Assembly (NCBI GenBank): GCA_002269645.1
Contig: NIVC01000024.1
Span: forward strand, 744,001-808,000
Source: Macrostomum lignano
Lineage: Eukaryota
Length of the DNA stretch: 64,000 bases
Reading direction: 5' to 3'
The translations under genes were made by a program, and so were the position numbers. This document shows positions 57,885 through 58,382 of the stretch, piece by piece (position 1 is the first letter of the stretch; the number at the start of each line of letters is the position of its first letter). Below the pieces are notes generated by a model. That model did no database searches. It was given only the letters and a program-made list of their open reading frames with translations, and was not told the DNA's origin.

Positions 57885-58382
57885 ATGTCTTCTATCTCTC
57901 TATACGAAAACTTTGTGGCGCGGAAGCCCACATTTGAAACTGAACACAACTTGATTGAAATTCGGCGTCTCTACACCAACGAGGCCGGAGTGTGGAAGGA
58001 CGGCTTCCCTGCAATCTACTTGAGCGAGCCAGAGTGGAAGAAGCTCGAAGCTGCGCGCCCTGACCTGGAGGCTGCTGCCCGCCTTCACGTGAACAAGCGG
58101 GTCCTGTTGGGCAATTTCAAGGCAGTTGAAGCTTCGCGAGGGAGGATCCGTTTGCTGCGCAATTGGCTCAATCAGGACCCAAAGTTTAATTGGCGCTACA
58201 CGATCGAATTCACGCCTGAACTGTGGCGCAGGATGTTTGCCGCCCGTTTGGACAAGCTCTTCAAGCCGGCACCTGAGGCACCCCCTCCAGCCAAGCGAGT
58301 CAAGACAGAGGACAATCTGCAGGACTGCCTTGACAGCATCAAACCCTACCCTTGGGGAAATCTGTTTGACGAGGGTTGCTAA
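57885..58382 (+). CDS. Putative ssDNA-binding protein with tandem PC4/Sub1-like domains and a monopartite NLS, 165 aa
   Basis: LIEIRRLYTNEAGVWKDGFPAIYLSEPEWKKL resembles the PC4 core [32 protein letters not shown]. A weaker second copy is IRLLRNWLNQDPKFNWRYTIEFTPELWRRM. PPAKRVK resembles the c-Myc NLS PAAKRVK. Matches by eye only. Confidence 0.7.
   Translation: MSSISLYENFVARKPTFETEHNLIEIRRLYTNEAGVWKDGFPAIYLSEPEWKKLEAARPDLEAAARLHVNKRVLLGNFKAVEASRGRIRLLRNWLNQDPKFNWRYTIEFTPELWRRMFAARLDKLFKPAPEAPPPAKRVKTEDNLQDCLDSIKPYPWGNLFDEGC

Follow-up and report, generated by a model that had tools for sequence, protein, structure and literature searches.

A Tandem PC4-Like Gene Facing the Polymerase of an Integrase-Less, Polinton-Related Element in Macrostomum lignano: A Candidate Accessory ssDNA-Binding Protein

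Introduction

Adenovirus DBP and phi29 p5 bind ssDNA during protein-primed strand displacement; their folds are unrelated to the PC4-like fold, and they are essential for their viruses. No ssDNA-binding protein has been linked to the replication of Polintons in the literature searched. In this study, a stretch of 64,000 nucleotides from Macrostomum lignano (contig NIVC01000024.1, positions 744,001 to 808,000; hereafter the window) was analyzed. It contains an element in which a pPolB-type polymerase is accompanied by one small PC4-like gene. A preliminary description took the product for the replication SSB of the element, and pPolB plus SSB for a minimal replication kit. The question is what this protein does, and whether the polymerase depends on a copy of the gene in the same element. 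A small, well-folded and expressed candidate from a laboratory flatworm makes the role of such proteins in Polintons testable.

Structure of the Element

The element extends from 51199 to 59954 (8,756 bp), and its interior is filled by the polymerase and the PC4-like gene. It is bounded by terminal inverted repeats (TIRs) with perfect arms of 921 nt. The left arm (51199–52119, + strand) begins with ACTACT, and similarity extends to about 1.1–1.3 kb; the right arm (59034–59954, − strand) ends with AGTAGT. The sequence AACATA flanks the element on the left (51193–51198) and on the right (59955–59960) as a 6-bp target-site duplication (TSD), a Polinton signature (PMC8097293). Twenty other loci of the same family, family A, were fetched, and a 6-bp TSD was found in all seven copies showing both end motifs, two of which share one site. 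The closest copy was 99.6% identical, which indicates that insertions are recent.

The two genes lie head to head, with their starts 236 bp apart. The intervening region (57649–57884) reads as a divergent promoter region with a TATA-like box before each gene (57713–57720 and 57829–57835). A 75-nt GT-AG intron (58424–58498, + strand) lies in the 3′ UTR, 41 nt past the PC4-like stop, and was joined in three of four runs.

The PC4-like gene had been described as the only accessory gene, and ORF, Pfam and probe searches agreed for this element. A resident retroviral-type integrase gave no tblastn match to the element, capsid and packaging ATPase probes gave none, and the 11 other ORFs had no Pfam family. 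The capsid probes were taken for capsid genes from their position, and Pfam assigned them no family. The element resembles the Polinton/Maverick (adintovirus) group with VSR-type pPolB in its PF03175 PolB, long TIRs, 6-bp TSD and short repeated end motif. Unlike that group, it lacks genes of its own for an integrase, a capsid, an ATPase and a protease, and the usual end motif and intronless core genes are also missing. It measures 8.8 kb and has six spliceosomal polymerase introns, whereas vertebrate Mavericks are given as 12.7–24.6 kb and intact ones as having no introns in PMC8097293. Capsid-less Polintons are already known (PMC4028283).

The window also holds a second inverted pair at 9368–9610 and 18184–18426, with copies of 243 nt that are 93% identical and separated by about 8.6 kb; they possibly bound a further TIR element.

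The Polymerase and Its Introns

The polymerase is encoded on the − strand in seven exons, which are stop-free in phase and give 1,276 codons plus a stop. Exon 1 (57588–57648) has a start codon placed from the frame and a basic N-terminus, and exon 2 (56806–56850) is 45 nt long. Exons 4 (54038–55957) and 5 (53423–53970) matched PF03175 with E values of 4.5e-17 and 4.9e-13. Exon 4 also contains what we take, by eye, to be the exonuclease motifs and a VSR-like insert. Exon 6 (53058–53351) is followed by exon 7 (52595–52988), which ends at the stop and whose acceptor was placed by the GT-AG pattern and conservation in copies. Exon 3 (56167–56735) had no Pfam match and is the probable terminal-protein/vOTU region, an assignment that follows from the domain order TP-vOTU-Exo-Pol (PMC11161782).

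Three runs, each from a different study and probably of RNA, had contigs that join five of the gaps at GT-AG ends; four were joined in all three runs and one in two. The fourth run contained none of these polymerase or 3′ UTR joints. The joint of intron 6 was not among the joints listed, and a repeat lies nearby. A broken polymerase was also considered and rejected, as the breaks are in-frame GT-AG introns. No intron was missing in any of 16 genomic copies where both flanks were found, and no intron-less copy was seen. Intron lengths varied among copies and intron ends were constant. Positions 2–6 were shared with the polymerase of a sister family, family B, at 54–73% amino acid identity (4/4 elements checked). 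The introns are judged to be old because these five positions are common to both families. In dinoflagellates, elements with inserted introners have been described (PMC11957031).

The polymerase exon compared had dN/dS values of 0.08–0.12 against four stop-free copies, and of 0.26 and 0.59 against two stop-bearing copies, and the gene is under purifying selection. The closest polymerases outside Macrostomum were Polinton-type enzymes of animals, 27–38% identical, and included mollusc, lancelet, insect and amphibian records. The resident Polinton polymerases sampled gave no BLAST match to that of the element.

Short tandem or dispersed repeats were observed in introns 3 (55990–56150) and 1 (56900–57560), whose length differs among copies. 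The locus L117:8190-10417 holds a polymerase of this type that is old, AT-rich and degraded; it is 35–46% identical to the window exons and possibly the relic of a fuller ancestor.

Sequence of the PC4-Like Protein

The ORF at 57885–58382 (+ strand) encodes 165 amino acids, and the first reading of two PC4-like segments was borne out by sequence and profiles. Repeat 1 covers residues ~1–66 (57885–58082, + strand). Residues ~67–126 (58083–58262, + strand) form a degenerate repeat 2, recognized from the structure model and from a profile test against host PC4. The motif PPAKRVK was confirmed at residues 134–140 (58284–58304, + strand). It lies in the low-confidence, disordered tail of the model and is presumably NLS-like, hence a candidate nuclear localization signal. 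Basic clusters were also present in the aligned tails of relatives.

Repeat 1 of the window protein alone matched Pfam PC4 with an E value of 0.034, under the Pfam cut-off. A PF02229 match was obtained for 12 of 13 aligned relatives, with a best value of 7e-9. The family profile matched human PC4 (E 3e-9) within profile positions 10–64. Relatives, profile and structure together established sequence homology to PC4/Sub1 for repeat 1. The repeat-2 profile found nothing relevant among PDB sequences. The local profile score between the two repeats was equalled in 19 of 100 shuffles and thus not above chance, and in global mode the score was reached in 60 of 60. The host genome's own PC4 gave three matches at E 2e-18. 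Against this host PC4, the repeat-2 profile aligned over 58 columns with a score of 21.3, reached by none of 60 column shuffles.

F17, R27 and Y30 are kept in repeat 1 as equivalents of PC4 F77, R86 and W89 (with Tyr for Trp), residues whose functional roles are described in PMC4350104. R27 was invariant in all 22 aligned sequences. The equivalents of PC4 R100 and K101 are F41 and P42, and the stacking aromatics of PC4 are missing from repeat 2. The protein is therefore likely to have a single nucleic-acid-binding face, mainly on repeat 1.

The core of the ORF had a dN/dS of 0.11 against a diverged family-A copy and is under purifying selection. Between families A and B the value was about 0.18, with dS near saturation. 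Near-identical proteins in UniRef carry the Macrostomum lignano label. Atlas matches to PC4 clusters had scores of 0.86–0.88 and serve as leads only. The UniRef gene models (58366–58560) splice within the ORF to give an acidic C-terminus, and this joint was absent among the transcript joints listed. The observed transcript joint uses a downstream donor, which leaves the 165-residue protein unaffected.

Predicted Fold

The whole protein was modeled as a single chain with a pLDDT of 85. The best structural match was Pur-alpha repeats I–II (Z 9.0, rmsd 4.2, 115 aligned, residues 1–127). The next matches were a DUF155-labelled protein, MRP1/2, PC4, the phage T5 homologue (4bg7) and Whirly. Repeat 1 superposed on human PC4 with an rmsd of 1.8 over 66 residues. 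When repeat 2 was folded alone, PC4/Pur-family chains made up nine of the top 14 rows (Z 3.6–4.5), below two unrelated KhtT rows; a Foldseek search with repeat 2 returned nothing at E ≤ 0.001. The match of the single-chain model to a tandem domain favors the duplicated PC4 fold that had been predicted. Together with the profile test of repeat 2 against host PC4, it supports the proposed intramolecular pseudo-dimer.

Type I PC4-like domains are intramolecular, with two repeats per chain (PMC7549692). The modeled ORF is best read as a type I PC4-like domain, contained in one chain and followed by a nuclear-targeting tail, such as invertebrate Polintons carry. Human PC4, fungal MoSub1 and the phage T5 homologue are one-repeat homodimers, whereas in the model the partner of repeat 1 is a degenerate repeat of the same chain. 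Two beta-sheet-plus-helix repeats in one chain are also found in Pur-alpha I–II, Whirly and MRP1/2. Unlike those proteins, the element's protein has a shorter second repeat, and identity to the tandem-fold matches was 8–10%. The tandem form is probably a duplication independent of Pur-alpha, Whirly and MRP1/2, since its sequence ancestry is PC4/Sub1.

Homologues in Resident Polintons

The genome was searched with the PC4-like protein, and 145 matches were obtained among 150 scored of 254 candidates. They fell into family A (mostly 77–100% identity), family B (37–45%) and many at 29–34%. The last sit in ordinary Polintons, which have an rve integrase and whose pPolB belongs to a different type. 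In the main integrase group, a homologue lay within 3 kb at 89 of 102 loci. In the second group the gene lies further off, and a match within 10 kb was found at at least one of 12 loci. Among the sampled Polintons that are complete, its usual neighbor is the integrase, not the polymerase, and it heads the integrase-side gene run. The counts indicate that the gene is not unique to this element and that most integrase-bearing Polintons of the genome have a homologue. Alignment of the resident Polinton proteins extended over both repeats, at about 24–31% identity. The tandem form thus appears to be common to Polintons and not newly made in this element.

The top viral fold match was MOSUB of a Branchiostoma lancelet adintovirus (UniProt A0A5H3CIS2; E 2.6e-4, TM 0.55, 158 columns). 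The name occurs only in the supplement of PMC8502044, as a label on a map that gives neither a tandem structure nor a function with it, and is absent from the main text. Compared with MOSUB and the Macrostomum Polinton homologues, the element's protein has a shorter tail and its gene faces the polymerase. A tree was built from 23 PC4-like sequences; 13 of its 20 forks stayed open, and it points to no donor. For the genomic context of relatives beyond this genome, a search with a divergent alignment gave a single metagenome locus, weak and uninformative, and no locus in viral contigs. Identity with the Maverick gene PW was rejected by position only: the homologue occupies the end of the element, ahead of the integrase, and PW lies between the minor and major capsid genes (PMC8097293).

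The genome was also observed to carry a very heavy load of near-identical Polinton integrases: of 2,225 candidates, 114 were scored and gave 115 matches.

Testing the Proposed Minimal Kit

Co-occurrence with related polymerases held in family A, where a PC4-like match lay within 10 kb of the polymerase at at least 50 of 56 loci. It did not extend to family B, in which such a match was found at at least 9 of 40 loci. Direct profile searches of ten family-B stretches gave the PC4-like gene in two, each also with a dUTPase. Five of the eight stretches without the gene showed both ends and a 6-bp TSD, and polymerase-only copies had dN/dS values of 0.08–0.11 and are under the same purifying selection as those with the gene. 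Because polymerase-only copies have ends, TSDs and signs of selection, the polymerase by itself suffices in cis, and the proposal that pPolB and the SSB form the minimal kit is not supported. Unlike adenovirus DBP and phi29 p5, the PC4-like gene is dispensable in cis in family B. The protein is possibly supplied to family B in trans, as the genome contains many gene copies and host PC4.

The PC4-bearing family-B elements add a dUTPase and a serine-rich ORF (L044:1229-1834 and L044:2307-2834). The serine-rich ORF has a basic cluster and no clear family.

Ends and Insertion

The ends, ACTACT..AGTAGT, follow the pattern (ACT)2//(AGT)2 and not (AG)3//(CT)3 or the (AGT)2//(ACT)2 of Mavericks (PMC8097293). 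Resident Polintons showing their termini (4/10 stretches) have AGTAGT..ACTACT. A comparison of family-A ends such as ACTACTATGG with one resident end, AGTAGTATGG, showed changes at positions 2 and 5 alone. This difference may be a paired change, which jump-back priming would copy. An end motif starting with AC is on record for one fish (PMC8097293).

An integrase-bearing partner with ACTAC ends was sought among 114 of 2,225 integrase candidates scored. None turned up in the TIR candidates that were scored (40 of 289 and 40 of 222), in ten fetched TIR pairs or at two divergent polymerase loci. Non-coding derivatives with the same ends have clean TSDs; therefore, these ends are moved in trans. 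A Polinton integrase acting in trans is the likeliest agent because of the 6-bp TSD, the near-identical ends and the AC-starting motif in a fish, and insertion by such an enzyme is considered fairly probable.

Two of the derivatives with family-A ends and 6-bp TSDs are 3.2–3.4 kb long (L121:500-3862 and L122:520-3753), and one holds an ORF that is mariner-like by eye. Ten elements of family-B type (L123–L132; 3.4–9.4 kb) have ACTACGT..ACGTAGT ends; a 6-bp TSD was found in eight and inverted flanks in two. Nine look like giant non-coding near-palindromes, and the ten gave no match to polymerase, integrase, capsid, PC4 or dUTPase probes.

Function of the PC4-Like Protein

PC4-like domains act on DNA both by binding single strands and by unwinding duplexes, and the phage T5 homologue is tied to replication (PMC7549692). 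With its PC4 ancestry, the element's protein very probably binds ssDNA. The SSB role is plausible, as the repeat 1 residues are kept and the promoter region is common with the polymerase. For participation in replication of the element, the chances are judged to be about equal either way. The gene is retained beside the polymerase in family A though virion and integrase genes are absent, which favors a replication helper. Against it stand the family-B loci, most of which have no such gene, and the position of the homologue near the integrase in complete Polintons. The loss of stacking aromatics from repeat 2, F41/P42 at the R100/K101 sites and the failure to find an ACTAC-ended integrase partner also weigh against it.

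One rival reading is that the protein is a transcription cofactor, which would melt or hold open promoter DNA and boost Pol II transcription of the element's genes. PC4 is described as a Pol II coactivator, the tail is NLS-like, the divergent TATA-like promoter region serves both genes, and in complete Polintons the gene comes first in the integrase-side run. However, the host already has its own PC4, the tail is short and not conserved, and family B keeps a selected polymerase without the gene, although this last point weighs equally against any essential role. The cofactor reading is considered unlikely. Proximity to the integrase at most main-group loci suggests instead an aid to excision, end protection, repair or integration, in which single-stranded or hairpin ends would be held and bulk replication would not be involved. 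PC4 is described as acting in DNA repair, and very long TIRs favor fold-back intermediates. But the gene is kept with the polymerase when the integrase is absent, and in the second Polinton group a long distance separates it from the integrase. Clean TSDs also flank insertions of non-coding and polymerase-only elements, which have no such gene in cis. A main role at the ends is thus quite improbable.

RNA binding, by which the protein would stabilize element transcripts or blunt small-RNA silencing, is suggested by the best whole-domain matches, as Pur-alpha and MRP1/2 bind RNA (PMC7549692). The tandem-fold match is architectural, however, at the low identity given above, and the ancestry is PC4/Sub1, not Pur or MRP; there is little chance that this is the main function. 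A passive passenger left from an ancestral element would fit the absence of the gene from most family-B loci, but the dN/dS values within family A and between the families largely refute it. With a spliced transcript in probable RNA runs as well, this is very hard to credit.

The preferred reading is a self-copying Polinton derivative that is inserted in trans, with the PC4 protein as an accessory ssDNA-binding helper; taken as a whole, it is given an even chance. Both genes would be transcribed and spliced in the host nucleus, as the joints seen in probable RNA for five introns of the polymerase and for the 3′ UTR intron suggest. After excision, the polymerase would replicate the element by protein-primed strand displacement starting at the ACTACT ends, and the PC4-like protein would coat or melt the displaced strand, chiefly via repeat 1. 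The copy would then be inserted with a 6-bp duplication by an integrase acting in trans, probably that of a Polinton. The PC4-like protein would be a useful accessory that is dispensable in cis, and family-B elements without the gene could use copies from other elements or host proteins.

A broader interpretation is put forward tentatively, at somewhat less than an even chance. The ACTAC-ended elements may be an old, distinct class of self-copying, integrase-less satellites, which would replicate with their own host-spliced polymerase, borrow the integrase of co-resident Polintons and support large non-coding palindromic followers. The single-chain PC4 may be the ssDNA-binding replication protein of invertebrate Polintons, the counterpart of adenovirus DBP. 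The element itself, to judge from splicing in probable RNA, is a virus-derived replicon with gained and conserved spliceosomal introns, without virion or integrase, that is still inserting afresh. Integrase-anchored surveys miss such elements by design, and a broad survey retained only integrase-linked polymerases (PMC10748475). Neither a tandem PC4 in Polintons nor this element was described in the literature searched, with the 2006–2007 founding papers and Repbase outside the search.

Some copies are internally inverted and duplicated (L038, L040 and L105–L106), so that a pair of PC4-like genes or of integrase genes is oriented head-on. These duplications lie within extended inverted repeats and are expected from template switching in end-primed replication.
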